IMG/VR virus record: IMGVR_UViG_3300035208_008180
Source of the DNA: a virus
Taxonomy: Duplodnaviria > Caudoviricetes
Strand: one strand, 5' to 3'
Length of the DNA stretch: 64,000 nt
A program made the position numbers and the translations under genes. Shown here piece after piece: positions 4,486-53,584 of this stretch (position 1 is its first letter; every line of letters starts with the position of its first letter). The notes under the pieces were generated by a model that was not told where the DNA came from, ran no database searches, and saw only the letters and a list, made by a program, of their open reading frames with translations.

Positions 4486-4589
4486 TTATTTCCTGTGTTC
4501 TACAACAGCTTGGCAAAACTTAAACACATCTTCGCCAGACCATCCGTTTTTCGCATATTGTGCCATCAATGACACAAATTGAATATTAG
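4486..4589 (-). pseudogene. C-terminal remnant of an HNH-type endonuclease
   Basis: Frame reads NIQFVSLMAQYAKNGWSGEDVFKFCQAV*, resembling the GNxQFVxxxxNxAK...FC tail of phage HNH endonucleases; abuts the tmRNA 3' end. Confidence 0.45.
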
Positions 4590-16233: not shown

Positions 16234-16245
16234 TATTTATTTCCT

Positions 16246-17514: not shown

Positions 17515-17560
17515 AATTAGTTCCTTGATGATGCTATTGTATCAAAATCCCTGCACCTAA

Positions 17561-18595
17561 TCAATACATCAAAATTTTTAAATGCTTAAAAATCCACACG
17601 GCCTTTTTGACATTTTCAAACATCCAGGGCTCTGTTTTCTTGATTAAACCAGAACCACTACCAGTTGACGATCCTCCCAGCAATCCACAAAACAGTCCTG
17701 CCAAACCAAGTTTTTGTGCGGCAAGAGCGTTGACTGCAACTCCTTCTGCACCGCCCGCACCACCATATGTAGGACTTAATTTTGCGTGAGGAGAAACCAA
17801 ATTCACATAATTGGGAAACACACTCAAAAGAATAGATTTCAAGTTGAGAGACTTGTCCTTGTATATATCTTGAAACCCATCATTGCCAAATTGAAAATTG
17901 TCCCAATCCTTCCAATATGGAACTAAAAGAACCCAATTCTCACCACCTAACAACATGCGTTCTTTTAATACTCGCAACAATTCTTTTCGGCACCAATCTT
18001 CTCTGGTCAATCCTGATGTTACCCAATTATATGTGGCATTTATATCATACCACCAAGGGGAATCTTTTATGCCCATAAATTGATAAAAATAAGGCGATGG
18101 AAAAAAATATTCCCCCCAACAACCCAAGCTGCCAACAGTAATAGCATGTTTAAAAGTATTCTTTACTACCCCAATATAATTTTGCGTATAGCTCTCAGCC
18201 TGGGCATGCCAATAACTAAAAAACCTATTGACTAATCTCAGCCCCAATTCATTCCCCCAAGGGAAAAATTGCTCATTTAAATCTTTTAATGCAGGGTTAT
18301 AACTTGCCAACGCTTTCGAGAAATCATTGCCCTGTCCATATTGATTGAGCAAATACCAAGAAGGGTCTGCCCATAGAGGTGTGCCCACCGGAGTGTGGAC
18401 ATACATTTTAACACCATTAGCCCTGGCTAAGTCTTCTGCTTCTAACAATCTGTCAAAATTATATTTGCCAGGAAATGGCTCTGTTTCCCACCAATAATTA
18501 TAATACCACACTGCTTCGATTTCACATTCGGCAAACCTTGCAAAATCATCCTTGCCATAATCTGTGCTATTGTATCCTAAAACTATGACGCTCAT
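17561..18595 (-). CDS. putative glycoside hydrolase-like TIM-barrel protein
   Basis: WWETEPFPGKYNFDRL resembles GH42/GH14-type N-terminal motif; TAATG-coupled to GluRS-like gene. Confidence 0.45.
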   Translation of the reverse strand: MSVIVLGYNSTDYGKDDFARFAECEIEAVWYYNYWWETEPFPGKYNFDRLLEAEDLARANGVKMYVHTPVGTPLWADPSWYLLNQYGQGNDFSKALASYNPALKDLNEQFFPWGNELGLRLVNRFFSYWHAQAESYTQNYIGVVKNTFKHAITVGSLGCWGEYFFPSPYFYQFMGIKDSPWWYDINATYNWVTSGLTREDWCRKELLRVLKERMLLGGENWVLLVPYWKDWDNFQFGNDGFQDIYKDKSLNLKSILLSVFPNYVNLVSPHAKLSPTYGGAGGAEGVAVNALAAQKLGLAGLFCGLLGGSSTGSGSGLIKKTEPWMFENVKKAVWIFKHLKILMY

Positions 18596-19311
18596 TATTG
18601 TTCCCAGTAAGGCTTGTCTAAGACAGGGTTTTTCTTTGTGTTTTCCACATACCAACCCCCGTCAGACTTCTCCAAACAAGCCTCAGCCAATAAATTCAAA
18701 ACATCCTGGGGGGCATAGCCTCTTTCACGATAATCCTTAATCTTGAAATTGCCCCTGGTCTTCGACATATCGGAAAGGTCTTGACCATCTCGTTGAATTA
18801 ATTTAGGTATATAACATAGCTTTGGAGGAACAAACCCCAACAATCGACAGAAGTAATAATAAAGACTGGATTCCGATACTAAGTCCTCTCCACGAATAAT
18901 TATATTACATCCCTCACGATGATCTTGCACAACCTTGATGGCTGTGATTAGGGGAATAAATGGGTAGGGCCTATCCTCATTTCTGACAAAGGGGCGAGAC
19001 CATTTAATTCCATCATCCTTTTCCAACCCAGGAACACCAGACAAATATTGCAGATTTGTTTCATGCTCTTTAGCAGTATGAGAATACAAATCAACTTTCA
19101 TACCCATCCAAGAAAACTCTTCCTTTATGGTCTCACAAAATTCATTGACTTTATCTCTGCCCAAGGATTGCAACTCTGGAAAATCCAGATCATCAAACCT
19201 AACTATGAATCTGCCGCCCTCTCTGGCAGCGGTATGATAGTTTATCAATGCTAAATATAAATGCCCCAAGTGAAGTCTACCACTGGGGGTTGGACTAAAT
19301 CTTGTTGTCAT
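18595..19311 (-). CDS. truncated glutamyl-tRNA-synthetase-like catalytic domain (GluQ/YadB-like)
   Basis: RFSPTPSG.LHLGH (HIGH), RFDD.D, IIRGEDL, DMSKT (KMSKS-like); 238 aa, no anticodon-binding domain. Confidence 0.85.
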   Translation of the reverse strand: MTTRFSPTPSGRLHLGHLYLALINYHTAAREGGRFIVRFDDLDFPELQSLGRDKVNEFCETIKEEFSWMGMKVDLYSHTAKEHETNLQYLSGVPGLEKDDGIKWSRPFVRNEDRPYPFIPLITAIKVVQDHREGCNIIIRGEDLVSESSLYYYFCRLLGFVPPKLCYIPKLIQRDGQDLSDMSKTRGNFKIKDYRERGYAPQDVLNLLAEACLEKSDGGWYVENTKKNPVLDKPYWEQ

Positions 19312-19493
19312 TATTTTACGTGTTCACTAAAGTATGCAATCCACCAAATTTCCTCAATAATAATGGCAACAGGTATGCCCCACAACCACTCTGCATGTTT
19401 GCTAACAGCGGCCAAAACAATAAACAAAATTGTAGAAGGCACCCATAGCCACCAACACCACACAAAAAACATCATAAGCAATATAAACAGCAT
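19311..19493 (-). CDS. small membrane protein
   Basis: hydrophobic, Trp-rich, TAATG coupling. Confidence 0.55.
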   Translation of the reverse strand: MLFILLMMFFVWCWWLWVPSTILFIVLAAVSKHAEWLWGIPVAIIIEEIWWIAYFSEHVK

Positions 19494-19996
19494 TATTCGT
19501 CTTCCGTTGTATATGAAAAATGCGGCATTTCATCCATACTCATTAGCGACGTGAGCCGGTGCAAATATTCAAAACCAACTATCTCGTGTGCCACATGATT
19601 CATCACTTCTTTGCCACTGATAGACTTGCCGTAAATTTCCCTATATTCATCCAAATACTCATCAATCTTATTCACTATATACTCCATTTGATTCTGGGCA
19701 CGTTCATCGGCAAGTTCTTGGAGCAAACCACATATCGTGGCTTCATCTATCCATGTCTGCTGCCGAAGGGTTTTTACTTTGTCTTCCAACATCAAAATCA
19801 AACGCTTTTGATGTTTCACAGTATCTTTCGACACACACCGTTCCACAGATATTATTTCATCAACAATCTCCGCAAAAGCTGTTGCCAGAGTAGGGTCCAT
19901 CGCTTTCATTTCAGTTGCGGGCTTACACCACGCAGTAGCCGCTATTTCCAAAGCAAACTCGGAGGGGCGTTTAACTTCTATATTTTCATTGTCCAT
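19493..19996 (-). CDS. hypothetical protein
   Basis: coupled ORF. Confidence 0.55.
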   Translation of the reverse strand: MDNENIEVKRPSEFALEIAATAWCKPATEMKAMDPTLATAFAEIVDEIISVERCVSKDTVKHQKRLILMLEDKVKTLRQQTWIDEATICGLLQELADERAQNQMEYIVNKIDEYLDEYREIYGKSISGKEVMNHVAHEIVGFEYLHRLTSLMSMDEMPHFSYTTEDE

Positions 19997-20225
19997 TATT
20001 TTGTAGTCTTTTTTTAAAAATATTCCACAAAACTCTCTTTACAAAAACAACAATTTTATCTTTGTAAAAACCATATTTATCTTTGTAATACTGGCCAGCA
20101 GCAACAACATATTTTATCAAAACTTGTTGTAATATGCCAGTTTTCCACGCCACATATTTCACCAAAGTGGAAAACTCTGCCTTCAACCATCTATCCTGAT
20201 TGATGGTTAGCTTTTTACTCGTCAT
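19986..20225 (-). CDS. hypothetical basic protein
   Basis: overlaps PrkA stop. Confidence 0.45.
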   Translation of the reverse strand: MTSKKLTINQDRWLKAEFSTLVKYVAWKTGILQQVLIKYVVAAGQYYKDKYGFYKDKIVVFVKRVLWNIFKKRLQNNGQ

Positions 20226-22290
20226 CGCTCACATCTCCACGACTGAAGATGCTGCCGACGTGAGCCAGAACATCCGTTGCAGATTGTTCATTATATCCAT
20301 ACTGTTTGATAAGACGCTGTTTGATAGCGTCAATTTTTTGTTGAATGTCGGGGTCTACTACCGAACTGCCCCGAATGTCCAAGGCACTCAATTTAATATG
20401 GTCCTTGGTGTCTTCAAAGAGCTTCATTTCCAACGCCTTTTTCAGCTTGGCATTAGAGTCCCATCGGAAAACTTTTCCTTCAATGGAAAGACTGCCGATG
20501 AAAGCAGCAATACCACGGCGGAATTCATCCACTCCCGCTTCGGGAATGTCAATCTTTTCTTCGATGCTTCTCATGAGCCGTTCGTTGGGCTCCATATCTT
20601 CGCCGGTAATTTGATTGATAACTTTGACCTTATTGATATAAGCTCGCACATTATCAATATAATTTGTGCAAAGACGGATAATGGCATCTTCGTCGCCAAC
20701 AAGGGCTTTTTGGACTTCATTTTTCAAGATATCATCCAATTCCTTTCTGACGGCATCCACACATTTAATATATTTTGCCACATCCTCTTTGTTCGTGATA
20801 AGAGAGGATTGATCTAGCCCTTCCTTGATTTCATTCAAAACCATAAATTGGTTGATATAATCGTGTCGGGCAGCTAGGCAGTTGGAAATCTTATCTTGGG
20901 TATAACGGCAGGACACACCAGACATTCCTTCTGTAGGATATTTGTCCCGCAATTCCTTGACGGTATCTTCCGTATATCCAGGCAAGCTGCGGCCATCAAG
21001 CAATTTTGCTTTATCAACCAGCGATAGTTTACCCTCTTTATCATCCTGCAAGCGGGTTAGAATTGTCCACAATGCAGCGATTTCCAAAGTGTGAGGAGCA
21101 ACGTGTTGCTTGACTTTTCCCGTCCCATAATAATGCTCCAAGATTGCCAACTCTTCACCCCATCGAAGCAAATAAGGAACATCGATGCGAACAGTACGAT
21201 CTCTCAACGCTTCCATCGTATTATCAGATCGAAGTTTTTCAAATTCAGGATTATTAGTATGTCCAATCAAAACCGTATCAACAGAAATTTGAGCAAACTT
21301 CTTGGGCTTGATTTGTTGTTCTTGAGAGGCACCCAACAGGTCGTAGAGGAATTCTTTGGCCAACTTGAGAACTTCGATGAATTCCACTACGCCCCTGTTG
21401 CCGATGCAAAATTCGCCATCGAAATTGAACGCCCGAGGATCAGAATCTGAACCAAAATGCGGGAGTTTGGCATAATTAATGTCGCCGGTCAATTCCGTCG
21501 AATCTTGATTTTTTTCATCTTTGGGCTGGAAGGTAGCAATGCCCATACGGTCGGGCTCAGAATAAACCTTGCGAACAACACGAATGTGCTCCTTGATGAC
21601 TTTGCCCCAATCACCCTCATATTTTTGCAACAACTCATTCATAAACTTTTTGCAACGAGGGTCTAATTCATTGTCGCAGCGAAGTGTATAAAGCTGCGTG
21701 CGTTCATTTTCTGGAGTGTTGTTTTTCAACACTTCATTCAAATCATCCACCACTCGCTTTCGCAATTCTAGGGGAAGCAACTTAAGTGGCTCTTCATGCA
21801 TTGGGCAATCATCTTCGGGATGCGTATAAATACCATCTTTCCCCGTGGGCAAATTCACCCATTTGAAGGTATACCAAATGCCATCTTCGGTATTGCTGTA
21901 ATATTCCATACCACGTTTGATGCATCGGCAAATAGTGGATTTGGAAGAACCCACAGGACCATGCAAAAGCAACACACGCTTTTCTGTACCATATCCGCCA
22001 GCAGCACCACGGATGAATTTGACCAAACTCTCAAGAGTTTCATCCAATCCGAAAATAGGAATTTCAGTATTGTCGAAGAAACAATAATGAGTGTGAGTTT
22101 TTCTGTACCGCTTGAAAGTCTTTGTGCCTTCGCTCATTATCATATCATACAATCGTTGATAAGCGGTACGAATAAGTCTGGGGGTCTTATAGCACCTTTC
22201 CAGATATTCGGCAAAACTAATTTCCTCATGAAGCACTTTGAATTGCTTCCGATCAAACAAATTGGCGAGTTGTTCTAATTTGGTGTCCAT
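20215..22290 (-). CDS. prkA: PrkA/YeaG family AAA+ serine protein kinase
   Basis: LLHGPVGSSKST, CPMHEEPL, KNQDSTELTG, SDPRAFNFDG, NRGVVEFIE.LK, EALRDR. Confidence 0.95.
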   Translation of the reverse strand: MDTKLEQLANLFDRKQFKVLHEEISFAEYLERCYKTPRLIRTAYQRLYDMIMSEGTKTFKRYRKTHTHYCFFDNTEIPIFGLDETLESLVKFIRGAAGGYGTEKRVLLLHGPVGSSKSTICRCIKRGMEYYSNTEDGIWYTFKWVNLPTGKDGIYTHPEDDCPMHEEPLKLLPLELRKRVVDDLNEVLKNNTPENERTQLYTLRCDNELDPRCKKFMNELLQKYEGDWGKVIKEHIRVVRKVYSEPDRMGIATFQPKDEKNQDSTELTGDINYAKLPHFGSDSDPRAFNFDGEFCIGNRGVVEFIEVLKLAKEFLYDLLGASQEQQIKPKKFAQISVDTVLIGHTNNPEFEKLRSDNTMEALRDRTVRIDVPYLLRWGEELAILEHYYGTGKVKQHVAPHTLEIAALWTILTRLQDDKEGKLSLVDKAKLLDGRSLPGYTEDTVKELRDKYPTEGMSGVSCRYTQDKISNCLAARHDYINQFMVLNEIKEGLDQSSLITNKEDVAKYIKCVDAVRKELDDILKNEVQKALVGDEDAIIRLCTNYIDNVRAYINKVKVINQITGEDMEPNERLMRSIEEKIDIPEAGVDEFRRGIAAFIGSLSIEGKVFRWDSNAKLKKALEMKLFEDTKDHIKLSALDIRGSSVVDPDIQQKIDAIKQRLIKQYGYNEQSATDVLAHVGSIFSRGDVSDDE

Positions 22291-25383: not shown

Positions 25384-26787
25384 CTATGTAGATTTTTTAA
25401 TTTTTTCCACTATATTTGTTGTTGCATAACCTTCCACTCTTGGAAAAACAACCACTTCTTTAGCCACATCCGATCCCACAATATAGGGCCAAGTATTGTC
25501 CTTTACCAAAACATCGGGTTTAATTTGAGCATAAATATCATGTAGCTCATCATTACTATTAAAAGGCATCACAAAATCTACGCATTCCAATGCTGCCAGC
25601 ATTCGCATCCTGGCTTGCAAATCATTTACAGGTCTGCCTTCGCCCTTAAATCTCTTTACTTGCTCATCCGTATCCACAAGCACAAGCAATTTATCTCCTT
25701 TCGATTTGGCAAATTTAAGAATTTCCATATGTCCAAAATGCAAAATATCAAAACACCCATTAGTAACCGCCAGTTTGTATGGCCTATTGTTTAAACACTG
25801 TATATCGATCATTTTGCTGCCTACAGGATCAATACGTGCATATACCTCTTGTAAACAAATGGGTTCATTATATTTCTTGCCAACATAGACTGCTCCTGCC
25901 TCGTAAGCTATTTGCACAGCATCCACAATATCTAAAGCATGGGCCATCGCTAATCCAAGAACAGAAATAAAACAATCACCAGCCCCAATAACAGATGCAC
26001 AGTCCGAGCTATATGGAGAATGATAATCAAAATATTTTTCCATTACTTTGCCATAAACGCCATCACCACCATGAGTAATAACAACCGCCATACAACCCAA
26101 TTGCCGCTGAAAGAAATCGCATTGATTTTGCCAATGCACAGAAGGAATATGACTTAATTCTTCTGCTTCTTTAGCATTGGGCTTAAATATTGTGCAACCA
26201 TTCCAAAGGCAAAGCGGTCCTTTTTTCGGATCAATTATGCTAATTGTGTCTCGTTCTTTTTTGAACCATTGAGTTTTATTAGCCCCTGATAAGACTCCCT
26301 TGTTGTAATCAGCATATATTGTCACAGCAACATCGGATACTTCATCATAGGCTGCAAGTAAATCCTTTTGATATTCCACAATATCTTGCAATCCATAATT
26401 TGGCACCTCGATATCCCAACGACTAAGGGGGAAATTATCTTGATAGAATCTTCTTTTACGTGGAATAAAAGAAGGCGAAGATAAAGTCTCACATCCACTA
26501 ATATCAACACCAATGGATTGATAAAGTGGACGACTTTCTATATCCAAAAATCCAAAGAGTTTAACATCCGTGTTAAAATATTTAAATTGATTTGCTAGAT
26601 TTCCAGCACCACCAGGAACAACTACATCTGGTCTTTCATTAGTGCCCAGCATCCTTACAATAGGAAACTCGGGAGAGAGTTTATCTGCAACGACGTTGTA
26701 GTATTCGTCAAGGAGACAATCACCTATGACAACAATTGTTGGTCGATATTTATTGACCCTTCTAATTAGTGTTTTTAATGCTTCCAT
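25384..26787 (-). CDS. hldE: bifunctional heptose-7-phosphate kinase / heptose-1-phosphate adenylyltransferase
   Basis: GDCLLDEY, LSPE.P, PGGAGN, DYNKG, GAGD (PfkB) plus TNGCFDILHFGH, KG.GRP.N, PDVLVK. Confidence 0.9.
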   Translation of the reverse strand: MEALKTLIRRVNKYRPTIVVIGDCLLDEYYNVVADKLSPEFPIVRMLGTNERPDVVVPGGAGNLANQFKYFNTDVKLFGFLDIESRPLYQSIGVDISGCETLSSPSFIPRKRRFYQDNFPLSRWDIEVPNYGLQDIVEYQKDLLAAYDEVSDVAVTIYADYNKGVLSGANKTQWFKKERDTISIIDPKKGPLCLWNGCTIFKPNAKEAEELSHIPSVHWQNQCDFFQRQLGCMAVVITHGGDGVYGKVMEKYFDYHSPYSSDCASVIGAGDCFISVLGLAMAHALDIVDAVQIAYEAGAVYVGKKYNEPICLQEVYARIDPVGSKMIDIQCLNNRPYKLAVTNGCFDILHFGHMEILKFAKSKGDKLLVLVDTDEQVKRFKGEGRPVNDLQARMRMLAALECVDFVMPFNSNDELHDIYAQIKPDVLVKDNTWPYIVGSDVAKEVVVFPRVEGYATTNIVEKIKKST

Positions 26788-44136: not shown

Positions 44137-44574
44137 ATGAACACAACATTTGAACATTTTGTCGAAGAAAAAGCCCAAAACAACAAAGAGCAAATAAAAG
44201 CTATGTTAGGCTCCAATGATTTTGTTTTCTTCTTTGAAAAAAACAAAGAAATTTTTGGTGCCCCCGAAGAGAGCCGACTTATGTTTGCCCGCATGAAAAA
44301 CCCAGACCCCGAAGATAATGACTGGGTTAAAGAAGCTAATTTCAGCGGATTAAACCTCAATAGAGCCCTAAAGGGAGAGAAAACAGAAAGTCTATTTTCC
44401 CATACTGATTTGACCAAAATCAAAATATTGGACCAAGAAGAAGCATATGATAAATTGTCCAGATTAACTTCGGATACAGATAAGATAAAAACCGTTCTTT
44501 CTGACGATGATAATCCGCACCCAGAAGCTCCTGATGCGGCTCCAGGCATCCAACAATTAAAAGACAAAAAATGA
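44137..44574 (+). CDS. hypothetical protein, tagged
   Basis: Starts MNTTFEHFVEE. Confidence 0.65.
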   Translation: MNTTFEHFVEEKAQNNKEQIKAMLGSNDFVFFFEKNKEIFGAPEESRLMFARMKNPDPEDNDWVKEANFSGLNLNRALKGEKTESLFSHTDLTKIKILDQEEAYDKLSRLTSDTDKIKTVLSDDDNPHPEAPDAAPGIQQLKDKK

Positions 44575-45377
44575 ACTTTAGGCTATTTTTAGAGCGAGAA
44601 GAGGGTGCTATAGAATGGGATACATATTATCCCAAGTGGACTCCACGACAACTTGGCGATAGGGGCATGATATCCGCATACGTTTCTAATAAACATATCA
44701 GCATTGACCAAAGCCCCTATCATCCGATGTTGAAAAAAGCCCTAAGGATATTGCTGCGACAAAAGCCACATTTAGCAAACAAGCCCTTGGATTTTGATGG
44801 TTGGTCACCAGGAACATTACAACAATTCTTATATAGCTCAGAACCTATTGCCCCTAAAGATACACTCCCACAATTTATGTATCACGGCACATCCCTCCAT
44901 CGCTGGGAACACATTAAAGAAGATGGCTTAAAACCCCTAATTGCGAGTGGTGGAGAATATGGGGCAGAGCCAATGAGTGCTCCACTTACCAACCCTAATA
45001 ATGTTTACTTATCTGCAACTTTTGGAGCAGCTACCAGATTGGCCGCTTACGACGCTTCCAAAAAAGGAACAGGCGATGTTCCTGTTGTGTTGAAAATTAA
45101 CACCAAACAACTTGATCCTCAAAAAATCAGACCTGATGAAGAGTCTCGTGCTACAACATGGCAAAAAAGTCTGCATGGCTTAAACACTATCGCCTACGAA
45201 GGCGAGATACCACCACAATCCATAGAACTCTATAAAGCTTGGAATCAACAAACGGATAAGTGGGAAAACCCAGGACAGTGGCTAGAGCCAACTGATTTTA
45301 TAGCTCAACAAATGCTTCACAGGACAGGATATAAAGACATTCCCAACAGCACCGGCAAATATAAGTGGGCTAAATAG
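44571..45377 (+). CDS. ADP-ribosyltransferase-fold protein (H-Y type, Tpt1/PARP-like), tagged
   Basis: MYHGTS...I...GL.P, VYLS, VVLKI, IPP..I; starts MNFRLFLE. Confidence 0.7.
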   Translation: MNFRLFLEREEGAIEWDTYYPKWTPRQLGDRGMISAYVSNKHISIDQSPYHPMLKKALRILLRQKPHLANKPLDFDGWSPGTLQQFLYSSEPIAPKDTLPQFMYHGTSLHRWEHIKEDGLKPLIASGGEYGAEPMSAPLTNPNNVYLSATFGAATRLAAYDASKKGTGDVPVVLKINTKQLDPQKIRPDEESRATTWQKSLHGLNTIAYEGEIPPQSIELYKAWNQQTDKWENPGQWLEPTDFIAQQMLHRTGYKDIPNSTGKYKWAK

Positions 45378-45543
45378 CAAAAAACGCTATCGGCCCCAAA
45401 GCCAAACAAAGTAAAAAACAAAATAAAAAAGAAACCCATTCTGTCAAACTCTTCGGCACACCACATTGCCAACTCACTCTACAAAATTGCATAAATCCAA
45501 GTAACATCCATATCAACAACACAATTAAAAGAAAATATGCCAT
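45370..45543 (-). CDS. small membrane protein (57 aa, not in ORF track)
   Basis: GGAGG RBS; MAYFLLIVLLIWMLLG..., two TM segments. Confidence 0.55.
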   Translation of the reverse strand: MAYFLLIVLLIWMLLGFMQFCRVSWQCGVPKSLTEWVSFLFCFLLCLALGPIAFFAI

Positions 45544-45572
45544 TTCGGCCTCCTTTTAATATATATATCAAT

Positions 45573-46229
45573 ATGACATTGCCATTTGAAAACAATAAAG
45601 ACGTAAGAAAGTACCAGTGTTTTGTCTGTGGAGTGCAGTTCTTAGAACTCAACGAAATGACAGAGCACATCAAAGAAAAACACCAAGAAGGCAGAGATTA
45701 TGTGCTTTGTCCTTTGCTCTATTGCAAATGTTGCGTTAGGGATTTAGTTCATCATTTTAAAGCACGTCACCCTTCTCAGCCCCTGCCCAAAAACAGACAA
45801 ATGAAAGCTATTGTATGGAAAGATTTTACCGCCCAAGGAACGGCAAAAAAGAAAAAACAAAGATTTAAAGAGGGTTGGTATGTTTCTACAAAAATGAATA
45901 AGCAATTTTATTTTAGAAGCGGTTGGGAAGAAACTGTATTCGAATGTCTGGACCAAATGAATGAAGTAGCCGCTTATGAAGCAGAGCCTTTTAAAGTTCC
46001 CTACATCTGGGAAGGCACTCAGCACGAATACAATCCCGACATTCTGGTGGTGTTTAATGATGGGCGTAAAGAGGTTTGGGAAATAAAACCATCAGATCAA
46101 ACCTCTTTACAACAAAATAAAAATAAATGGCATGCAGCTAATGAAATGTGTAAAGCTAGAGGATGGGAATTTATTGTAATGACAGAGAAGGGAATCAATC
46201 AATTAAAGAAAAGGGTTGGAAAGAAATGA
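45573..46229 (+). CDS. C2H2 zinc finger plus TnsA-N/T4 gp4-like PD-(D/E)xK endonuclease
   Basis: CFVC..F.....M..H...KH; RSGWE, Y.PD, WEIKP, K..AA...C...GW.F...TE. Confidence 0.8.
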   Translation: MTLPFENNKDVRKYQCFVCGVQFLELNEMTEHIKEKHQEGRDYVLCPLLYCKCCVRDLVHHFKARHPSQPLPKNRQMKAIVWKDFTAQGTAKKKKQRFKEGWYVSTKMNKQFYFRSGWEETVFECLDQMNEVAAYEAEPFKVPYIWEGTQHEYNPDILVVFNDGRKEVWEIKPSDQTSLQQNKNKWHAANEMCKARGWEFIVMTEKGINQLKKRVGKK

Positions 46230-46804
46230 CTTTTCGCATCTGGTTGGAACAGAATCGTCCACAAGTTGAGCCGAATTTTTCAATGCAAGTCTGGGATGCC
46301 TGCATTAAGCACGTTCCTGTTGGTACTACTATTTACCGAGGGTTTAGAATCCATAAAGATTTGCGAAAAATGACCATTCGACAAATTCTCTCACAATCTT
46401 TTAAAAGCAATGCAAAACCCTTCGATCCGTGGACTTTGGATTTTGCCGTAGCTCAAAGATTTGCTGCCGGGGCTCACAGCAATGCTGATGGAACATCAGG
46501 AAGAATGGAAGACACAGCCAGAGTAATTGTATCAGCTAAAATTGTCCAACATAGAAATGTAATAGATTTGAAACAATTTGGCGACAAAATAATGGGCCAC
46601 AACGTAAGCAAAGGCAGTGGCATTAACACCTATTGGCAACCTAGAATGATTGGCAAAGCAACAATCGATGATCGTGATGTGGAAAATGAAATACCCATTT
46701 TAAGAACCGCCTATGCTAACCCTCAACTATTTCCTTTAACTGGATATTGGACAGAAGAAAACGGACAATGGGTGCAAGGAAACAAACCAGCAGCCTTATC
46801 TTAA
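46226..46804 (+). CDS. ADP-ribosyltransferase-like protein (R-S-E type), tagged
   Basis: IYRG, PWT....A..FA, ENEI; starts MTFRIWLE. Confidence 0.55.
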   Translation: MTFRIWLEQNRPQVEPNFSMQVWDACIKHVPVGTTIYRGFRIHKDLRKMTIRQILSQSFKSNAKPFDPWTLDFAVAQRFAAGAHSNADGTSGRMEDTARVIVSAKIVQHRNVIDLKQFGDKIMGHNVSKGSGINTYWQPRMIGKATIDDRDVENEIPILRTAYANPQLFPLTGYWTEENGQWVQGNKPAALS

Positions 46805-47115
46805 AACCCATCAATAAAAATAACAGTCTCTACACCTTCTTTGCTTTCTAAATATACTGTATCTGGCTCTATTGTGTTATCTATCACAAGCTCCAATCGC
46901 CGTTCTCCAAATCCTGTTTCTAATTGCTCCTCAAAACTTGGCATACAATAAAAAGTAGAGGCAATATCACTGGTAGTTCTGAGTTTGGTGGTGCTGAAAC
47001 CACAACGCCCTTTGATGAAATAATGCAATGCATTAATTTTTTCAACTTCAGTGGCGGGTGGATGGTCAACAACTATATTAAAGTCATAAGTTAAAGCGTT
47101 CATGATCTTAGCCAT
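46801..47115 (-). CDS. hypothetical protein
   Basis: overlaps the end of the nucleotidyltransferase gene. Confidence 0.5.
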   Translation of the reverse strand: MAKIMNALTYDFNIVVDHPPATEVEKINALHYFIKGRCGFSTTKLRTTSDIASTFYCMPSFEEQLETGFGERRLELVIDNTIEPDTVYLESKEGVETVIFIDGF

Positions 47116-48317
47116 TCCCTAAATCCCATCTTACGCAACATTTCCTTGGTGTTATGTTGCATAATATGTTGCCCAATTTCTTTGCCTTGTAATTCGGCTG
47201 CCCCTGGAACTTCATCCCTGTTCATCAATTGGTGTGTTCGCAACTGTTGAATAGCACGAGTATCCAGACCATGCAACTGACTCCATGCTTCCAAATCCTC
47301 AGGTGACATATCCCGCTGCCCTTTTCTCAGACTCCACAAGAAGGCAGGATGCTCTTTTAGCTTATCTTGAATATTGGGCAAATGAAGCAAATTGACCAAA
47401 TACACCACATTGTCCACTTCATCATTAGTGTATTTTAATTGATTTAATTTTCTTCTGATCTTTTCCACATCATTGAGCCGCAACAGATGGGCAACCAATA
47501 TAACAGGATTCTTGGTCTCCACATAATCATGGCTGACCACTAACCCTGGAAATACATATTTTTGCAACAATCCTAATTGATGATAGAGACTTACATAACC
47601 CACAACTGATTTAGCAGATTTTAAACCCTTAATAAATTCGTCTCTGACCCGCTCGGGTGCCACAGCCACGCCATTATCGCTTGCCAGCCCATTATTGACT
47701 CGTTTTTCAATAGCCGCACGAGTTGCTTCATCAATGCCTCTGATGTCGCCATGATTTACACGGCAATAGAACCGCACATATCTTAAAACTCTCAGAGCAT
47801 CCTCGCCAAACCGTTGGTCGGGATCACCCACAGTTTTAACACGTCGCTCTTTCAAGTCTTGTAATCCGCCAACCAAATCAACCACTTCATGACTGTCTAA
47901 ATCATAATAAAGAGCGTTGATTGTTAAATCTCTTCTTTCGGCATCGTCTTGGATATGGGAAAATTTATCAGCTACTTGACGACTGCCAGAATCCTTGCGA
48001 AAAGTGGCAATTTCATAATCTTCATTACCAATTGAGGCTATAACCACCCCGAATTGATTTCCTACAGCACCTTTGGTATGGTTAATGCCACCAGCTTTAA
48101 GAATTTCCATTACTTCTGTGGGCTGTGCATTCGTGGCTAAATCGAAATCTTTGGGCTGTTTTCCCAATACTGCATCTCGTACTGCACCTCCCACCAAATA
48201 TAGATGTTTGCCCGATTTTTTAAATACTCTATGAATAACATGAATATCCTCTGGCAAATTGATTGACAGGTGCATTCGCACTTCTTTACTTTCTAAAAAT
48301 TGCATAAAACTAACCAT
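47100..48317 (-). CDS. cca: class II tRNA nucleotidyltransferase (CCA-adding-like), tagged, no HD domain
   Basis: VGGAVRD, DFD, EIATFR, RRDLTINA, EDALR.LR, ER...E; starts MVSFMQFLE. Confidence 0.88.
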   Translation of the reverse strand: MVSFMQFLESKEVRMHLSINLPEDIHVIHRVFKKSGKHLYLVGGAVRDAVLGKQPKDFDLATNAQPTEVMEILKAGGINHTKGAVGNQFGVVIASIGNEDYEIATFRKDSGSRQVADKFSHIQDDAERRDLTINALYYDLDSHEVVDLVGGLQDLKERRVKTVGDPDQRFGEDALRVLRYVRFYCRVNHGDIRGIDEATRAAIEKRVNNGLASDNGVAVAPERVRDEFIKGLKSAKSVVGYVSLYHQLGLLQKYVFPGLVVSHDYVETKNPVILVAHLLRLNDVEKIRRKLNQLKYTNDEVDNVVYLVNLLHLPNIQDKLKEHPAFLWSLRKGQRDMSPEDLEAWSQLHGLDTRAIQQLRTHQLMNRDEVPGAAELQGKEIGQHIMQHNTKEMLRKMGFREWLRS

Positions 48318-48336
48318 ACCTTATATATAATATAAA
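48318..48336. promoter_or_regulatory. 19-bp divergent spacer with central TATATATA box
   Basis: ACCTTATATATAATATAAA between two back-to-back ATGs of tagged genes. Confidence 0.55.
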
Positions 48337-48981
48337 ATGAACTTTAGAAATTGGATAGAGCACAAATGGTACGAATTTAAAGATACCGTGGAATTATATC
48401 ACGGCACCTCTAGTGCCTTGCTTCCAATTATTAAAACGAATGGATTGGTGCCACCTGATGAGTGTTTAGAGTCATATGCTATTAAAATAATCAAATCATA
48501 TGGAGTTGCCGCAAGCCCGCAATTAATGGAATGGATTCACAAATACGCAATTTCATCAAGAGCTAATGAACCAAACAACAAAATAGCTAACGTAATTTAT
48601 TTAACTCCCAAATTCGAGAATGCAAAAAACTACGCAAAATCCACCCATAAATTTGGGGGAGAAATGGCGGCTGACATTTGGCGAGCTATCAATGTAATTG
48701 AAAGCAAAAAAAGAGGTTTGCCAAAAATGCAGGAAATTATACCTCCCATTTACAAAGAATCTCATCCTGTAGTATTAGAAGTAGAAATCCCATCTAAATG
48801 GATGAATACATATCATGATTTAGCACAACGATATAAAGATGCATTAGACTACTGGGCAACCTTGAAATCTAAGCCAGATGTTCACGATTTTATGGAGAAA
48901 GAATTTGGTCGCTTTGAAATAAGAGTAGAAGAGACTATTCCTGCGTCAATGATAAGAAAAATTCACGCAATAATGTCCTGA
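48337..48981 (+). CDS. ADP-ribosyltransferase-fold protein (H-Y-E type), tagged
   Basis: LYHGTS...I...GL.P, IYLT....A..YA, VVLEV, FEIRV...IP; starts MNFRNWIE. Confidence 0.7.
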   Translation: MNFRNWIEHKWYEFKDTVELYHGTSSALLPIIKTNGLVPPDECLESYAIKIIKSYGVAASPQLMEWIHKYAISSRANEPNNKIANVIYLTPKFENAKNYAKSTHKFGGEMAADIWRAINVIESKKRGLPKMQEIIPPIYKESHPVVLEVEIPSKWMNTYHDLAQRYKDALDYWATLKSKPDVHDFMEKEFGRFEIRVEETIPASMIRKIHAIMS

Positions 48982-49613
48982 AATATCTTGTGATTCTCTG
49001 AATCTTTCCCTGGGATGGCAAACACTACGTTTTCAAACACTTTGTCAAATTCACCACCCTTCAAAAACACCTTAAATGTAGTAGCAATCATGGCGGGAGA
49101 ATTATTAAATATTCCACATCCCCATGCTCCAAGAATTAAATGTTTGTGGTTGTGAACAGCGGCAATTTCAAGAATGCGACGAATACGATTCACAATCAGC
49201 AAAGTGTCTTTTGGCTCGGGATTAACCACCGCTGGCATGGAAATTACAGCTACCGAATAAGGATCAACAGGGTCTAATTGCTTGTCTTTATTCACCACCA
49301 CATTAGAGCAATATATAGCATCTAGTCCATTGCGAGGAAGAGGATAGTATTTATGAATCTCAGGAATATCTAACAATTCTGGCAAATTGGAACGACGAAA
49401 AAGGTCTTCTTCTTGAGTGCGAATCGGCATACGCAAATTGCGAACTGATTCGTAGCCCCCACCAGGACGCTTATGAGAAGCAAAATTTAAACAACAAGCG
49501 TGGTCAAACTCAGCGGCTGTTGTGAATGTGTCATTATCAACAACTGAGAATTGTGTCTGCTCCACCACAGGAGATGGCACAAATGAGAACCCCTCTGAAT
49601 ATAATTGAATCAT
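48963..49613 (-). CDS. bacterial-type PARG macrodomain (TIGR02452/DUF2263)
   Basis: LNFAS...PGGG...QEE.L.R.S.L, LILGAWGCG.F.N, VFAI. Confidence 0.9.
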   Translation of the reverse strand: MIQLYSEGFSFVPSPVVEQTQFSVVDNDTFTTAAEFDHACCLNFASHKRPGGGYESVRNLRMPIRTQEEDLFRRSNLPELLDIPEIHKYYPLPRNGLDAIYCSNVVVNKDKQLDPVDPYSVAVISMPAVVNPEPKDTLLIVNRIRRILEIAAVHNHKHLILGAWGCGIFNNSPAMIATTFKVFLKGGEFDKVFENVVFAIPGKDSENHKIFQDIIA

Positions 49614-49616
49614 AAT

Positions 49617-49895
49617 CTACCAATGTTCTTTGGTGTTTAATGTATGAATAAAATTTCCAATCTCCTGCAATACCTTTTCAGCATCATTACCTTCTGCCTC
49701 AAAAATTATTTCGCTGCCTGATTGAATGCCCATAGAAAGCATTTCCAACACAGAGCTAACATGTGCTCTTTCGCCATTATGTACAAGTATTACTTTAGCT
49801 GAAAATGGCTTAATTAACGCTGCCAACGCTGTGCATGGTCGAGCATGTAAGCCGCAAGGATATGTTAAAATAAGGGTTTTTGTCACTCTGTCCAC
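49617..49895 (-). CDS. ptsH: PTS phosphocarrier HPr
   Basis: GLHARP (His15 site), SSVLEMLSMG (Ser46 region), AEG.DAE. Confidence 0.92.
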   Translation of the reverse strand: MDRVTKTLILTYPCGLHARPCTALAALIKPFSAKVILVHNGERAHVSSVLEMLSMGIQSGSEIIFEAEGNDAEKVLQEIGNFIHTLNTKEHW

Positions 49896-50161
49896 CTATT
49901 ATTTTGAGAATGATCTTCTTCTATCCACCTTTGGGCCTGTAAACAATCTCTTCTATAAGGACAATGCAAAGCACAATAACAAGCCCGATAGCCAGCATTA
50001 AATCCTGATGCGTATAGCTTTAGAAAATGCTCTTCGGCAAATTCCCACCCCACATCCTTGTGTTGCTCTTCAGATAAATACCATTTATCCTCCTCAATTG
50101 CATGTTGCATTATTTTAGCCTGGAGGATAAAAAAATCTTTGTTAGTACAAACTTGCTGCAT
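49883..50161 (-). CDS. DUF4032-like protein
   Basis: I...KWYLSE....DVG...A; GGAGG RBS. Confidence 0.6.
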   Translation of the reverse strand: MQQVCTNKDFFILQAKIMQHAIEEDKWYLSEEQHKDVGWEFAEEHFLKLYASGFNAGYRACYCALHCPYRRDCLQAQRWIEEDHSQNNRWTE

Positions 50162-50190
50162 GGCACCTCCTTGCAGATTATTTATACTTG

Positions 50191-50724
50191 TTATGCTGGT
50201 GTTTCCAGCCACAAATCCCCAGATTTTTCTATTGCCAAATCTTCATAGGGTGCAGTTCTTCTTCTATACATTTCGTCAATTACATCTGTAAAAACGCCAA
50301 GAAAGAAAATGCACTCTTCTGGGGTGTAAAATTCTCGCTGACTCATCACCGCTCGCCACAATGCTCCCTTTATAAAAGATCGCATACAATATCTCGCCGG
50401 GGGTCTACCTGGAGCATCACCTGTTAGTCCCCAACACAAACTGGATAGGCTATAATTCAAGTCACCAGCCATATCCTCTTTGTTGGCTGGAAGGGTTCTT
50501 GCTAATTCAGTGGCATATTCTTTTAGCTTTGCTCCCATTCCAGTTATAGTGGTATTAGGAAACTTCGGGTCAGCCAATCTTTTTATTTCACGTACTAAAC
50601 TGCTTGAAAAAGTGGCAACCAAAGTGGCTTGTATCATTGGTGATTCATTACTGGGAATTAGCCCCATCACCTTTGCAATTATTGCATCGTACTTCGATCT
50701 ATTTTCGTTCTTGATGTATGGCAT
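50191..50724 (-). CDS. hypothetical phage protein
   Basis: MPYIK..., GDLNY, E.YRR..APYED.AI...GD. Confidence 0.7.
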   Translation of the reverse strand: MPYIKNENRSKYDAIIAKVMGLIPSNESPMIQATLVATFSSSLVREIKRLADPKFPNTTITGMGAKLKEYATELARTLPANKEDMAGDLNYSLSSLCWGLTGDAPGRPPARYCMRSFIKGALWRAVMSQREFYTPEECIFFLGVFTDVIDEMYRRRTAPYEDLAIEKSGDLWLETPA

Positions 50725-50733
50725 TTTTATTCC

Positions 50734-51339
50734 TTATGTTTTACTTGCGATTATAGACTGCACTTTTTCTTGTTGTGCGTTTTTTACGACTTCCCGCTCT
50801 TCCATTCTTTGTTCTAAAATATCACCCATTATGGCACTATTGCGTATATATTCCGAAGCTCTTTGTAGAGTTTGATAATCCTCAGCGAAATAAGAAAGAC
50901 CAAAATTACACCTAAAGCACAACAGCCCTCTAATTTTTCCACAGTTATGATCGTGATCTACATGTAATCGCTTGCCTTCCTTAGGCGGCTTACCACAAAT
51001 AGCACACCCACCGCCTTGTTGCTCAAGCATAAAACTATAATCATCTATAGTCAACCCATACTGTCTGAGTTTTTTGATATGGTTGTAGTCTTTGTCTTTT
51101 TTGGCTACCCACTCTTTTTGAACTTGCTTCTTGCGTTGCTTGTTTTTTTTGGTCCACTCTACACAATTATCCTTCTGTTTCTTTAAATACTCTGGATTAT
51201 TTTGCTTAAGCCATTTGTCATAACAACTCTTGCACAACCCTCTTGCCCAAACTGGCCTATCGCTATGCACAGAACACATTTTACTGGCTTTTATATCTTG
51301 CTTCAATCCACCCTGTTTGTTTTTAATTTTCTTTAACAC
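50734..51339 (-). CDS. endonuclease VII-like protein
   Basis: YGLT..DY..M...Q.G.CAIC, VDHDH..G..RGLLC..CN..L. Confidence 0.88.
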   Translation of the reverse strand: MLKKIKNKQGGLKQDIKASKMCSVHSDRPVWARGLCKSCYDKWLKQNNPEYLKKQKDNCVEWTKKNKQRKKQVQKEWVAKKDKDYNHIKKLRQYGLTIDDYSFMLEQQGGGCAICGKPPKEGKRLHVDHDHNCGKIRGLLCFRCNFGLSYFAEDYQTLQRASEYIRNSAIMGDILEQRMEEREVVKNAQQEKVQSIIASKT

Positions 51340-51400
51340 AACTTCCCTTCTGCCAATTGTTTGCCTTATGTATTATATAGTAATTGGCAGAAATATTTTT

Positions 51401-51787
51401 TCATCTATTTTTCAAAATATTTGGAAGATTGTCTAGTTCTTTTGGCAAAATGCCCGCATTTATCATCTCTTGAGTTTCTAATAAACAGCAAGCGTTCCAA
51501 ATCACCGCACTCAGGTGATCTTCGTCTTGTAGTCCTGCTGTAAATTTAAATGCGTGCCGAAGCATAGAATCCAAATACCTGCTCAGGGGAATACCCTTTG
51601 CCCAATTTGAATCTCCATATTTCCTAGCCCCGTTTTCAAAATGTTGTGCCAGTCGGGTAATCGCATAATATGGCAACAAATCAAACCTTCCCTTGCCATC
51701 TTGGGTGTCCCTAACAGCCCCGGTGCCAAACTCTTGTCTAGCCCCTGAATCCATTACCTTGTCGAATTTAGTTGGTGTCTCGCTCAT
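51401..51787 (-). CDS. dATP/dGTP diphosphohydrolase (DUF5664)
   Basis: GAVRD...GK.RFDLLP, GA.KY...NW.KG, RH, EDHL....WN. Confidence 0.85.
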   Translation of the reverse strand: MSETPTKFDKVMDSGARQEFGTGAVRDTQDGKGRFDLLPYYAITRLAQHFENGARKYGDSNWAKGIPLSRYLDSMLRHAFKFTAGLQDEDHLSAVIWNACCLLETQEMINAGILPKELDNLPNILKNR

Positions 51788-51844
51788 GTTAAACCTCACT
51801 TGTAATCTCTACATACTATACTATAATGTGATGCAGAGGTCAAT

Positions 51845-52180
51845 ATGTTAAAAAAGAAAAAATTAAAACCAATTTGTAAAAATTGTAGTTTATTTGATCG
51901 AAACAACAGCATATGCAGAGTGGTTATTTTATCCGAAGGTGAACGCATCAACATTCCTGTTGACCCCGATGATAAGTGTTTTTTCAACAATAAGTTTACT
52001 GCTCTTGAAGAAAAAGCAGGGAAAATTGTTGAAGAACAATTTAAGCCAGAAATTGAACAAGTCCGATGGTGGGTAGAAGACCCAGAAACTGGACAACAAA
52101 CTAAGGGAAACGGCGTTGTAAAAATGCAATATCCAAAAAACTTTTTCTCTCCCGAGGATAAAGATGTTCGAAAAAATTAA
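51845..52180 (+). CDS. hypothetical protein with Cys cluster
   Basis: GAGG RBS; CKNC...C...C. Confidence 0.6.
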   Translation: MLKKKKLKPICKNCSLFDRNNSICRVVILSEGERINIPVDPDDKCFFNNKFTALEEKAGKIVEEQFKPEIEQVRWWVEDPETGQQTKGNGVVKMQYPKNFFSPEDKDVRKN

Positions 52181-52802
52181 ATACAAATACTGGGAAATAG
52201 TGCCGTATGATTGGCGACCTTGGCAAATGTGGTATCGCTTCAAGTCCTTTATTTGGACTCGCCCCACAGTTATCAAGCCTCGCTATTTACCTTATACTTG
52301 GTGCGACAGAATGGAAATGCTGCCCCATATGATGTTTGAGATATTATCTCAATTCATTGAACAAGAGTGCTCGCCTGGGCATGTGGATTGGGAAGCTTCC
52401 GATCACAAGATTCGTGTGGTAAAAGACGATTCTATTGATCCCGGTAGCGGCCTTCCATTGGACCCCGGCAAAATGGTCAATGTTCGTGACGAAATGCAGG
52501 AACTTTATGATTGGTGGCATAATGTTTATATGAAAGAATATAAAGAGGTAGAAGAAATTCTTTGGGCAGAAGCCAGAAAACACGAGCCAATTGACCGATG
52601 GGAAGAAGACGATGATAAAAAAATGGCTGGACTCTACGGCGAAACCCTTTATAAATGGGAGCAAAATTTTAAAACCACCGAAGATGAAGAAATTTATCAC
52701 GATTGTTTAATGGCACTCAACAAATTAGAAGCCAATCAACACAAAGCATTATTAGCAAGGATGCACAGAATAGTCAATCTGACTGGTTATTTGTGGACGT
52801 AA
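52164..52802 (+). CDS. hypothetical Trp-rich protein
   Basis: ORF, GAGGA RBS. Confidence 0.65.
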   Translation: MFEKIKYKYWEIVPYDWRPWQMWYRFKSFIWTRPTVIKPRYLPYTWCDRMEMLPHMMFEILSQFIEQECSPGHVDWEASDHKIRVVKDDSIDPGSGLPLDPGKMVNVRDEMQELYDWWHNVYMKEYKEVEEILWAEARKHEPIDRWEEDDDKKMAGLYGETLYKWEQNFKTTEDEEIYHDCLMALNKLEANQHKALLARMHRIVNLTGYLWT

Positions 52803-52817
52803 TATCTATATACTTCT

Positions 52818-53171
52818 ATGAGTTTTAGACAATTTGTAGAAGATGCTGCGGCTTGGGATGCTTTTCAAGACGTTTTCTTTGTTGGAGAATACGAAGGGCA
52901 AGCAAGTGATTTCTATTGCTGGCTTCGCCAACGCTGGAGTGCCAATCAATCCCCTCAAGATTATGATTACAAAGGATTGGAAAGATTGTTTGCTGATTGG
53001 AAAAAAAGCACAGTTCGTGGTGCATGGTGTGCAAAAATGGATCGAAGTCGAGATCGCAAACGAAGAAAAGACTTCGGCCCAGGCAAATATTGGGCACCTA
53101 CATCAGCAGGTGTCTTCCTAAATAAAAACTTTGTAAAAGGATGGAGAGGTATCAATCCAGCAAACCCATGA
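52818..53171 (+). CDS. hypothetical protein, tagged
   Basis: Starts MSFRQFVE; CTATATA 5 nt upstream. Confidence 0.65.
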   Translation: MSFRQFVEDAAAWDAFQDVFFVGEYEGQASDFYCWLRQRWSANQSPQDYDYKGLERLFADWKKSTVRGAWCAKMDRSRDRKRRKDFGPGKYWAPTSAGVFLNKNFVKGWRGINPANP

Positions 53172-53584
53172 AATTCAAACAATGGCTTGAATCCATATAC
53201 TATCACGGCACCACACCCGAAAACGCCGAATCTATCCTAAAAAATGGCATCGACCCAGATCGCTATAAAAGCGGGATGTTCAGAGGATTCTACCTTACAC
53301 CAAACCCAACTTACTTCAATGGCTTTAGCGGGCCAAAGAAAACAATTTTGGCCATAGAAATTGATGACTCGCAAATACTCGATGTAGAAAGCGTCAAGGA
53401 TGAGGATTTGCTGCCAATTGATCCTCACTTCAAAATGATGAGCCCAATGTATAAAAATACTATGATTATGAAGTTGGCTCTTGAAAAAGGATATTCTGGC
53501 GTCAAAAACGGAAAAGAAGTTGTTCTTTTTACTGACAGAGCAATCCGCTCTATTCGACCCATAAATTCCAGTCATTCAAAGTAG
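53168..53584 (+). CDS. ADP-ribosyltransferase-fold protein (PARP-like H-Y-E), tagged
   Basis: YYHGT...A.SI...GI, GFYLT, GY.GV....EVVLF; starts MKFKQWLE. Confidence 0.7.
   Translation: MKFKQWLESIYYHGTTPENAESILKNGIDPDRYKSGMFRGFYLTPNPTYFNGFSGPKKTILAIEIDDSQILDVESVKDEDLLPIDPHFKMMSPMYKNTMIMKLALEKGYSGVKNGKEVVLFTDRAIRSIRPINSSHSK

Follow-up and report, generated by a model that had tools for sequence, protein, structure and literature searches.

Candidate injected ADP-ribosyltransferases under a shared short leader, and an untagged PARG, in a putative huge T4-like phage

Alt of bacteriophage T4 is the textbook example of an injected ADP-ribosyltransferase (ART), and the capsid-targeting sequence of T4 reads MKTYQEFIAE. 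The capsid-targeting sequence is the only feature common to the diverse internal proteins of T-even phages (PMC3012670). Gene context has led to the prediction that head-packaged ARTs are common among myoviruses and that jumbo phages carry KptA (Iyer, Burroughs, Anantharaman, Aravind; PMC9503650). Here we describe a 9-kb stretch (positions 44,137 to 53,584) of a viral sequence from IMG/VR (record IMGVR_UViG_3300035208_008180), of which 64,000 nucleotides, hereafter the window, were analysed. The stretch appears to carry four ART-fold genes of three different lineages (B; A together with C; and D), whose products share a short N-terminal leader (the tag), and an untagged gene for a PARG. The reading that we favour, with confidence a little above even, is that the tagged ARTs are made late, loaded into the head and injected, that the PARG is made in the cell as a general function of huge phages, and that the stretch lies in a variable region of accessory genes in a huge T4-like phage. 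The five genes are the following (positions in the window).

44571–45377, plus strand: A, tagged Tpt1/KptA-derived ART-fold protein, 268 amino acids (HGT at residues 105–107, YLS at 146–148; H105, Y146 and E210)
46226–46804, plus strand: B, tagged putative ADP-ribosyltransferase of the R-S-E type, 192 amino acids (YRG at 37–39, WT at 69–70, ENE at 153–155)
48337–48981, plus strand: C, tagged ART-fold protein, 214 amino acids (HGT at 22–24, YLT at 88–90)
48963–49613, minus strand: untagged PARG macrodomain of the bacterial type, encoded at the end of a minus-strand run (begins MIQLYSEG)
53168–53584, plus strand: D, tagged candidate minimal ART, 138 amino acids (HGT at 12–14, YLT at 42–44; H12, Y42 and E116)

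Re-reading of the sequence confirmed the open reading frames (ORFs), motifs, coordinates and strands of a first-pass annotation, its statement that all four ART-type genes are tagged and the PARG gene is not, and the tail-to-tail overlap in which the last 19 bp of the PARG gene (48963–48981) coincide with the end of C. The frames of B and D contain an earlier ATG than the starts given, but these starts are sensible, because each overlaps the upstream stop by 4 nt and places the tag at residue 1.

The relationship among the tagged genes is most evident in the tag itself. A, B, C, and D all begin with M-x-F-[RK]-x-[FW]-[LI]-E. A strict form of the tag starts 17 ORFs on the 340-kb contig that contains the window (C200) and none in five shuffles; with a relaxed form, the counts are about 30 ORFs on C200 and 11 on a second contig (C242), and the cargo proteins are unrelated. 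Within the window, tagged ORFs span positions 1447–53584. The codons of the tag vary synonymously, which points to a peptide signal; on the same grounds, a function as a DNA- or RNA-level element was rejected. The tag is kept in homologues from other metagenomic phages, is lost in some, and is followed by an inserted domain in one. It is also modular, as the homologues P0004 and P0005 and the paralogue C2 either carry extra sequence after the tag or occur without it. What is found, then, is a leader of about ten residues on unrelated proteins, like the MKTYQEFIAE of T4, and by sequence the tag resembles this capsid-targeting peptide.

Many tagged genes are also preceded by a promoter-like box. 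A motif of the type CTA[TA]ATA lies 3–7 nt before the ATG in 11 of 31 tagged genes, compared with 28 of 713 untagged genes (p = 8e-8). The same is seen on a related contig of 142 kb that carries a homologue of B (L015), where 16 genes are tagged and about 12 of them show a box of the (C)TAAATA type 4–5 nt before the ATG; the boxed genes include a run of plus-strand neighbours (tags and boxes noted at L015:41–12830), whereas untagged neighbours have Shine-Dalgarno leaders. In the T4-like phage Aeh1, the late promoter CTAAATA spans positions −12 to −6 (PMC1524935). With the box so close to the ATG, transcription would start at or next to the ATG and yield an almost leaderless mRNA. The tagged genes look like a co-regulated, late, and nearly leaderless class, which fits the loading of a prohead but is no proof of it. 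Generic scans for sigma-70 promoters and terminators performed no better than on shuffled sequences.

By analogy with T4, we have moderate confidence in packaging and injection. The tagged proteins would be made late in infection, and the leader of about 8–10 residues would carry them into the core of the prohead. A gp21-type protease would trim them after the Glu of the leader, and they would enter the next cell with the DNA, as T4 Alt does, and ADP-ribosylate host targets at entry. The targets of B would be proteins, and those of A and C more likely the ends or riboses of nucleic acids.

The head genes that such a route calls for lie outside the window. The window comprises bases 128001–192000 of C200 (340,072 bp, 40.5% GC), which had been grouped in the bin of a bacterial genome of 66% GC; this binning is therefore probably wrong. 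Its content is typical of huge phages and includes a tmRNA, PrkA, DUF444, SpoVR, a PHP/Pol III alpha fragment, a RecA-like protein, and a DEAD-box helicase. The T4-type major capsid protein, the portal, and the gp21-type prohead protease are encoded not on C200 but on C242 (97 kb, 39% GC), with profile scores of 89.5 bits for PF03420, 289 bits for Gp23, and 258 bits for Portal_T4. The T4-type scaffold and protease that accompany capsid-targeted cargo, both on C242, are thus present in the same genome, provided that C242 joins C200. The last bases of C200 overlap with the first bases of C242, and its first bases with the end of contig C226; overlaps of contig ends give the order C63-C102-C226-C200-C242, a chain of about 579 kb. 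The tetranucleotide correlation with C200 is 0.987 for C242 and 0.982 for C226. The closest GenBank phage is the uncultured LR756511.1 (595 kb), whose capsid protein is 72% identical; because it has homologues of both the capsid protein and the PARG in a single genome, it fits one genome of that size here. The phage probably has a genome of about 580 kb and not of 340 kb, with its head genes on C242 if the contigs are joined correctly, and the T4-type head genes suggest a myovirus-type (T4-like) phage. A megablast search of the 10-kb stretch against GenBank phages gave no match. The portal gene (C242:24773–27283, minus strand; 836 amino acids) contains an apparent intein-like insertion with Cys...His-Asn-Cys boundaries, as judged by eye.

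Tag and box may also be explained without packaging. The leader could serve the translation of leaderless mRNA, localization within the cell, or protein turnover, and the ARTs would then act in the producing cell, as ModA and ModB of T4 do. Such a role would account for the tight link of the tag to a promoter box abutting the ATG and for the tag on enzymes without an obvious need for injection, such as a CCA-adding-type nucleotidyltransferase encoded beside C; it would also suit a strict motif that is unlike the L/I-x-E of T4, and some 30 different cargoes, which far exceed the known load of T4. We nevertheless consider it unlikely, because the tag is kept by tagged genes that lie inside operons and have no box (A, B, and D), is conserved at the peptide level with synonymous codon changes, and is close to the experimentally defined sequence of T4, and because a T4-type scaffold and protease are present.

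Protein B has no match in Pfam, PHROG, or NCBIfam. An exhaustive HMMER search of 1.8 billion representatives returned only five relatives, one of which is a domain within a bacterial protein of 4061 residues; a word-indexed search gave a sixth. Y37-R38-G39, W69, and E153-x-E155 do not vary among the six aligned sequences, all of which have Ser or Thr at residue 70. B therefore carries the R-S-E signature, with W-[ST]-[LIV] in place of the usual S-T-S. The AlphaFold model of B (pLDDT 70.6) gave no significant match with Foldseek. In a VIA-align comparison with 48,161 chains, almost all of the top 50 were ART or ART-like (best Z 5.6, below the level at which a match stands alone); the matches include TreX, diphtheria toxin, PltA, pertussis toxin, Tpt1, Arr, Scabin, LT, PARPs, DarT, and RES. 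Its neighbours in the ESM Atlas are NarE, EspN, and RES, and a profile of the family found nothing meaningful among PDB sequences. A tblastn search of 50,697 GenBank phage records, T4 Alt, ModA, and ModB included, gave no match at E 0.01, and B has no detectable homology to the Alt/ModA/ModB family. From its signature and its model, we read B as an R-S-E ART that belongs to a new subfamily with few members.

A different origin is indicated for A and C. A matches the Pfam family PTS_2-RNA (PF01885) with 26.8 bits at a cut-off of 26, its homologue P0005 with 33.1 bits, and A matches phrog_13493 at 1.3e-9. The profile of the A family matches the Tpt1 structure 6E3A at E 0.0027 among PDB sequences, and PDB searches with the single sequence gave only noise and weak matches to Tpt1. 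A short N-terminal piece of A aligns with the Arg-His helix of Tpt1 and reads K/R-Gln in all five family members. In these low-scoring alignments, K/R63-Q64 falls on R16-H17, the region of R64 is absent, and R119 is replaced by Ala or Glu. The corresponding tetrad of Runella Tpt1 (R16, H17, R64, and R119) is essential, and Ala mutants of His17, Arg64, and Arg119 accumulate an ADP-ribosylated RNA intermediate (PMC6097658). A lacks three of the four catalytic residues, and the tetrad is found neither in A nor in C; the invariant set of the A family, according to the alignment, is H105, Y146, and E210. Together, the matches to Tpt1 profiles and the altered catalytic residues suggest that A is derived from Tpt1 but is not a Tpt1.

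C, which has eight homologues, yields an AF2 model with a pLDDT of 81 in which the tag (residues 1–12) is disordered. The best VIA-align match of the model is the NAD lobe of KptA (9ld3_A, residues 86–180; Z 11.2, 22% identity), with TreX, mouse TRPT1, and PARP16 next, and the 50 matches listed are without exception ART or ART-like; the top matches in Foldseek are archaeal Tpt1 proteins (probability 0.97–0.99). The families of A and C are linked to each other by hhalign at 92.7%. The NAD-binding ART lobe of Tpt1 is thus present in C, according to the model, and in A, according to the profile. Because C starts at its HGT motif, it lacks the RNA-binding lobe of Tpt1; it carries long helical inserts in the model. 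HGT is present in seven of seven full-length members of the C family and the Tyr in seven of eight, and no member varies at GGE 107–109, E194, or R196. C has an untagged paralogue at C200:47233–47841 (minus strand). Searches of GenBank phages with A and C (tblastn) gave no match, and a pattern scan of IMG/VR for C found no relatives.

In comparison to Tpt1/KptA (PF01885; 9LD3, 8TG4, 6E3A, and 7KW8), both proteins share the HGT-bearing NAD lobe and a C-terminal I-P-x-x-x-I motif, and A retains a remnant of the N-terminal lobe. By contrast, A has K/R-Q for R-H, no counterparts of the other two Arg, and a Tyr where the second motif of Tpt1 has His, plus an invariant Glu, whereas C lacks the N-terminal lobe and has large helical inserts. 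The caveat of the first-pass annotation that the H-type proteins might be Tpt1-like 2'-phosphotransferases is borne out for the ancestry of A and C, although neither of them fits the catalytic definition of Tpt1.

This ancestry invites the alternative that A and C are KptA-like RNA-end enzymes that, together with the CCA-adding-type enzyme, RtcB, an RNA ligase, and the PARG, repair tRNAs that host defences have cleaved or modified, rather than attack the host. The best relatives of A and C are indeed Tpt1/KptA, and a tagged CCA-type nucleotidyltransferase is encoded between them, with another near the B homologue in the other phage. The phage also has RtcB (C200:62452–63558, minus strand), an Rnl2-type RNA ligase (C226:42938–43399, minus strand), and a tmRNA. 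Jumbo phages have been reported with KptA for tRNA repair (PMC9503650), and the PARG of Deinococcus radiodurans belongs to an operon for RNA/DNA repair and clears phosphate ends of ADP-ribose (PMC11833690). However, A has Gln for the essential His, and two of the three essential Arg of Runella Tpt1 (PMC6097658) have no counterpart in A; C begins at the HGT motif and has no RNA-binding lobe. Ligation by RtcB and Rnl2-type enzymes yields no 2'-phosphate that would need Tpt1, both genes are located more than 100 kb away, and B and D are left unexplained. We give tRNA repair the same low probability as a leader that does not serve packaging.

The assignment of D is less firm. Residues 10–56 align with exotoxin A around H440 and Y470, and exotoxin A accounts for 11 of the 12 PDB matches listed, albeit at non-significant E values (0.14–0.25); the Pfam family Exotox-A_cataly matches at E 0.018. 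E116 is the candidate catalytic Glu by position only. The lead from the ESM Atlas was ART-PolyVal, but searches with hidden Markov models gave no support for membership in that family. Comparison of D with the families of A and C by hhalign reached only 12–18%, and no homologues were found in GenBank phages (tblastn) or in IMG/VR and JGI metagenomes (pattern scans). It is plausible from its sequence that D is a minimal ART, perhaps of the diphtheria toxin/exotoxin A type. At least three further candidate ART genes, all tagged, are present outside the window: an HGT protein of phrog_11974 with weak matches to PARP and Tpt1, a protein with a weak match to ART-PolyVal, and an HGT protein on C242 (C200:260381–261373, plus strand; C200:306158–307198, minus strand; C242:92773–93468, minus strand).

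The proposal that the stretch holds four ART-fold genes therefore stands for C and, less firmly, for B, on the basis of their models, and for A, on the basis of Pfam and PDB matches to Tpt1 profiles, whereas D has only a motif match; of the predicted structures, that of C shows the fold (Z 11.2) and that of B points to it (almost all matches ART-like, Z up to 5.6). Our confidence in the ART folds of A, B, and C, and in the identity of the PARG, is high. Alternatively, some or all of the H-type proteins might be NAD+ glycohydrolases or inactive ART-fold binders, or D no ART at all. The match of D is short and non-significant, ART folds include NADases such as RES (RES-like clusters are among the ESM Atlas neighbours of B), and the top match of B is IcmQ, a non-enzymatic ART-like fold. 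On the other side, candidate catalytic residues are invariant in each family (H, Y, and E in A; E in C; R, E-x-E, and S/T in B), with HGT in 7/7 and Tyr in 7/8 members of the C family, and the maintenance of several lineages under a shared regime of expression and tagging argues for active effectors. We regard the NADase or binder explanation as slightly less probable than either of the two preceding alternatives.

The eraser, annotated at first pass as a TIGR02452-type PARG, proved to be a genuine bacterial-type PARG. It matches TIGR02452 with 107.8 bits (cut-off 50) and PF10021 with 48.6 bits (cut-off 23.5), and aligns with the PARG structure of T. curvata (3SIG) at E 9e-23, with GGG, QEE, and the loop GAWGCGIF in register. 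With the bacterial-type PARGs (T. curvata 3SIG, D. radiodurans 5ZDA; TIGR02452), it shares the macrodomain, GGG...QEE, the GAWGCGIF diphosphate loop, and a nearly full-length match; it differs from them by a six-residue insertion, an N terminus shorter by about 50 residues, and its location in a phage. An ORF of 92 amino acids upstream of the PARG gene was considered as the missing N terminus and rejected, because it encodes an HPr homologue and the PARG of a close relative is also short (217 amino acids). Among GenBank phages, 19 of the 20 records with PARG homologues are huge phages (Lak phages, phage G with gp114, and two uncultured phages of about 600 kb); the other is a 23-kb record of a faecal phage. 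Apart from the 23-kb record, the phage PARGs in GenBank are confined to genomes of some 500 kb or more. A pattern scan of IMG/VR for the PARG found no relatives. A second eraser of the phage is an untagged NADAR ADP-ribosylhydrolase at C200:328300–328704 (minus strand; locus L021:1489–1944; 80.6 bits), so that both ADP-ribose hydrolases found are untagged. The absence of the leader from the PARG and its position on the strand of the replication genes suggest that it is made inside the cell.

Several observations weigh against the reading of injected ARTs beside a resident PARG. Packaging is argued from resemblance to the T4 leader, and the strict tag ends with [FW]-[LIVM]-E, compared with [LI]-x-E in T4, although members of the relaxed set do end with L/I-x-E. 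On C242, the genes for the head structure are preceded by Shine-Dalgarno leaders and not by a box abutting the ATG; because they use such ordinary leaders, the tagged class is not simply that of the late genes. The join of the contigs is based on end overlaps of a length that is unusual for this assembly. Among the enzymes, A lacks the Tpt1 tetrad and its H-Y-E set is assigned from an alignment only, the structural Z scores of B are low (≤5.6), and the fold of D is unproven, with a match at the motif level only. The PARG has a variant loop, with six residues inserted between GGG and QEE (a spacer of 13, compared with 7 in 3SIG), and lacks about 50 N-terminal positions of the model. Finally, LR756511.1 retains the PARG (48% identity) but has no homologue of A or B and none of C adjoining the PARG, and a distant homologue of C adjoins an unrelated gene and has no PARG neighbour.

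The distribution of homologues bears directly on the suggestion of the first-pass annotation that the eraser resets the marks of the injected writers. A conserved pairing of C and the PARG was considered as a sign of coupling and rejected, because it holds only in an 87%-identical relative and fails in distant ones. Retention of the PARG without A and B in LR756511.1, and a distant C without a PARG neighbour, weaken the suggestion and make it improbable that the PARG serves these writers as a dedicated partner; our confidence in a dedicated writer–eraser pair is low. The ARTs look like swappable cargo and the PARG like a more stable function of huge phages, and such a general function is the more likely role of the PARG with respect to A–D.

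Published substrates indicate what this function might be. Bacterial PARGs remove 2'-OH-linked ADP-ribose from RNA as well as the ADP-ribose that Tpt1/KptA enzymes add to phosphate ends, and can shield cells against an RNA-targeting ART toxin; their reported nucleic-acid substrates are 2'-OH-linked and phosphate-linked ADP-ribose, and the marks of DarT are not among them (PMC11833690). A role of the PARG in countering DarTG, which had also been put forward, is therefore weakened, and the removal of ADP-ribose from nucleic acids is the most likely job of the phage enzyme. It would probably strip ribose- or phosphate-linked ADP-ribose (or poly-ADP-ribose) from RNA or DNA and thereby either protect against ART toxins of the host or limit the damage caused by the phage's own writers; the marks could be of host or of phage origin.

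The least probable of the scenarios considered combines all of these elements into a reversible cycle of nucleic-acid ADP-ribosylation. In this scenario, A and C would have lost the residues that Tpt1 requires for its second step and would be natural step-arrest variants that leave stable ADP-ribose on phosphates or riboses of RNA or DNA; injected from the capsid as part of a payload of dozens of leader-tagged enzymes, they would disable host RNA at entry, while PARG and NADAR would strip the marks from RNAs needed by the phage. Two members of the ART lineages (A and C) are in any case built on the RNA-directed scaffold of Tpt1 without its catalytic set, in a genome that also encodes a PARG and a NADAR. 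Activity of A and C on nucleic acids would add phage cases to the recently described ADP-ribosylation of RNA and DNA that is reversed by bacterial PARGs. Should the leader prove to direct loading, one could read from sequence alone which proteins a clade of huge phages injects, and the leader would provide a portable packaging tag.

The ART and PARG genes are interspersed with, or preceded by, the following features.

44137–44574, plus strand: tagged ORF of 145 amino acids (MNTTFEHFVEE), heads an operon with A and overlaps it by 4 nt; ATATATA box just before the ATG; no Pfam or PHROG match
45537–46229, plus strand: untagged zinc-finger and TnsA-like endonuclease, between A and B (Pfam Tn7_TnsA-like_N, 5e-16)
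47100–48317, minus strand: tagged class II nucleotidyltransferase of the CCA-adding/poly(A) polymerase family, divergent from C (Pfam PolyA_pol, 1.1e-35, and NCBIfam matches; tag MVSFMQFLE)
48318–48336, no strand: divergent spacer of 19 bp; late-promoter-like TATATA box shared by C and the CCA enzyme gene (inspection of the upstream sequence)
49617–49895, minus strand: homologue of HPr (PTS phosphocarrier), immediately upstream of the PARG gene (Pfam, E 1e-18)
50734–51799, minus strand: endonuclease VII homologue and MazZ-like dATP/dGTP diphosphohydrolase N-terminal domain, part of the minus-strand run that includes the PARG gene
52818–53171, plus strand: tagged ORF of 117 amino acids (MSFRQFVED), heads an operon with D; CTATATA box; no family match in Pfam or PHROG

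The order A, TnsA-like gene, CCA enzyme, C, and PARG recurs in the 87%-identical relative; a relative also has a gene of the HPr family at the position upstream of the PARG gene. A gene of the TnsA-like family occupies the same position in a syntenic contig of 23 kb. The C2H2 zinc-finger/TnsA-like gene is wedged between two tagged ART genes and may be a mobile nuclease that marks the exchange of cassettes. On L015, a tagged gene of the Pfam family PolyA_pol (406 amino acids) lies near the homologue of B. RtcB, the Rnl2-type ligase, the tagged CCA-type enzyme, and the tmRNA amount to a substantial set for RNA repair and translation rescue; the tmRNA (4589–4933, minus strand) encodes the tag peptide ANDYVALAA. 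Elsewhere in the window, the stress-response trio of PrkA, DUF444/YeaH, and SpoVR is encoded together (14635–22290, minus strand), and a PfkB kinase is fused to a cytidylyltransferase-like protein in an HldE-like architecture (25384–26787, minus strand).

Of the known systems, T4 Alt and the internal proteins (IPI–III) are the most similar. In both cases, there is a T4-type head and a short leader that ends in hydrophobic-x-Glu and is the sole feature shared by unrelated proteins; an R-S-E ART is among the presumed cargo, with a role that would be directed at host targets at entry. Unlike the T4 system, however, B shows no detectable similarity to GenBank phage proteins (T4 Alt, ModA, and ModB included), several ART lineages occur, tagged genes number about 30 on C200 plus 11 on C242 instead of a handful, many of them with a late-type box of their own that abuts the ATG, and packaging is here a prediction.

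The head-packaged and polyvalent ARTs predicted by Iyer et al. (PMC9503650) are similar in that they, too, belong to phages of the T4-like type suggested here, with predicted head loading and injection, and in that ADP-ribose-processing enzymes are encoded in the same genome. They differ in that the leader described here is short, is proposed to be cleaved, and is carried by small stand-alone proteins rather than by MuF, portal, or polyvalent fusions, and in that the signals of ART-PolyVal are only weak and below threshold. The idea of injected phage ARTs is therefore known; new is its multiplied form, in which several ART lineages occur side by side under one short leader.

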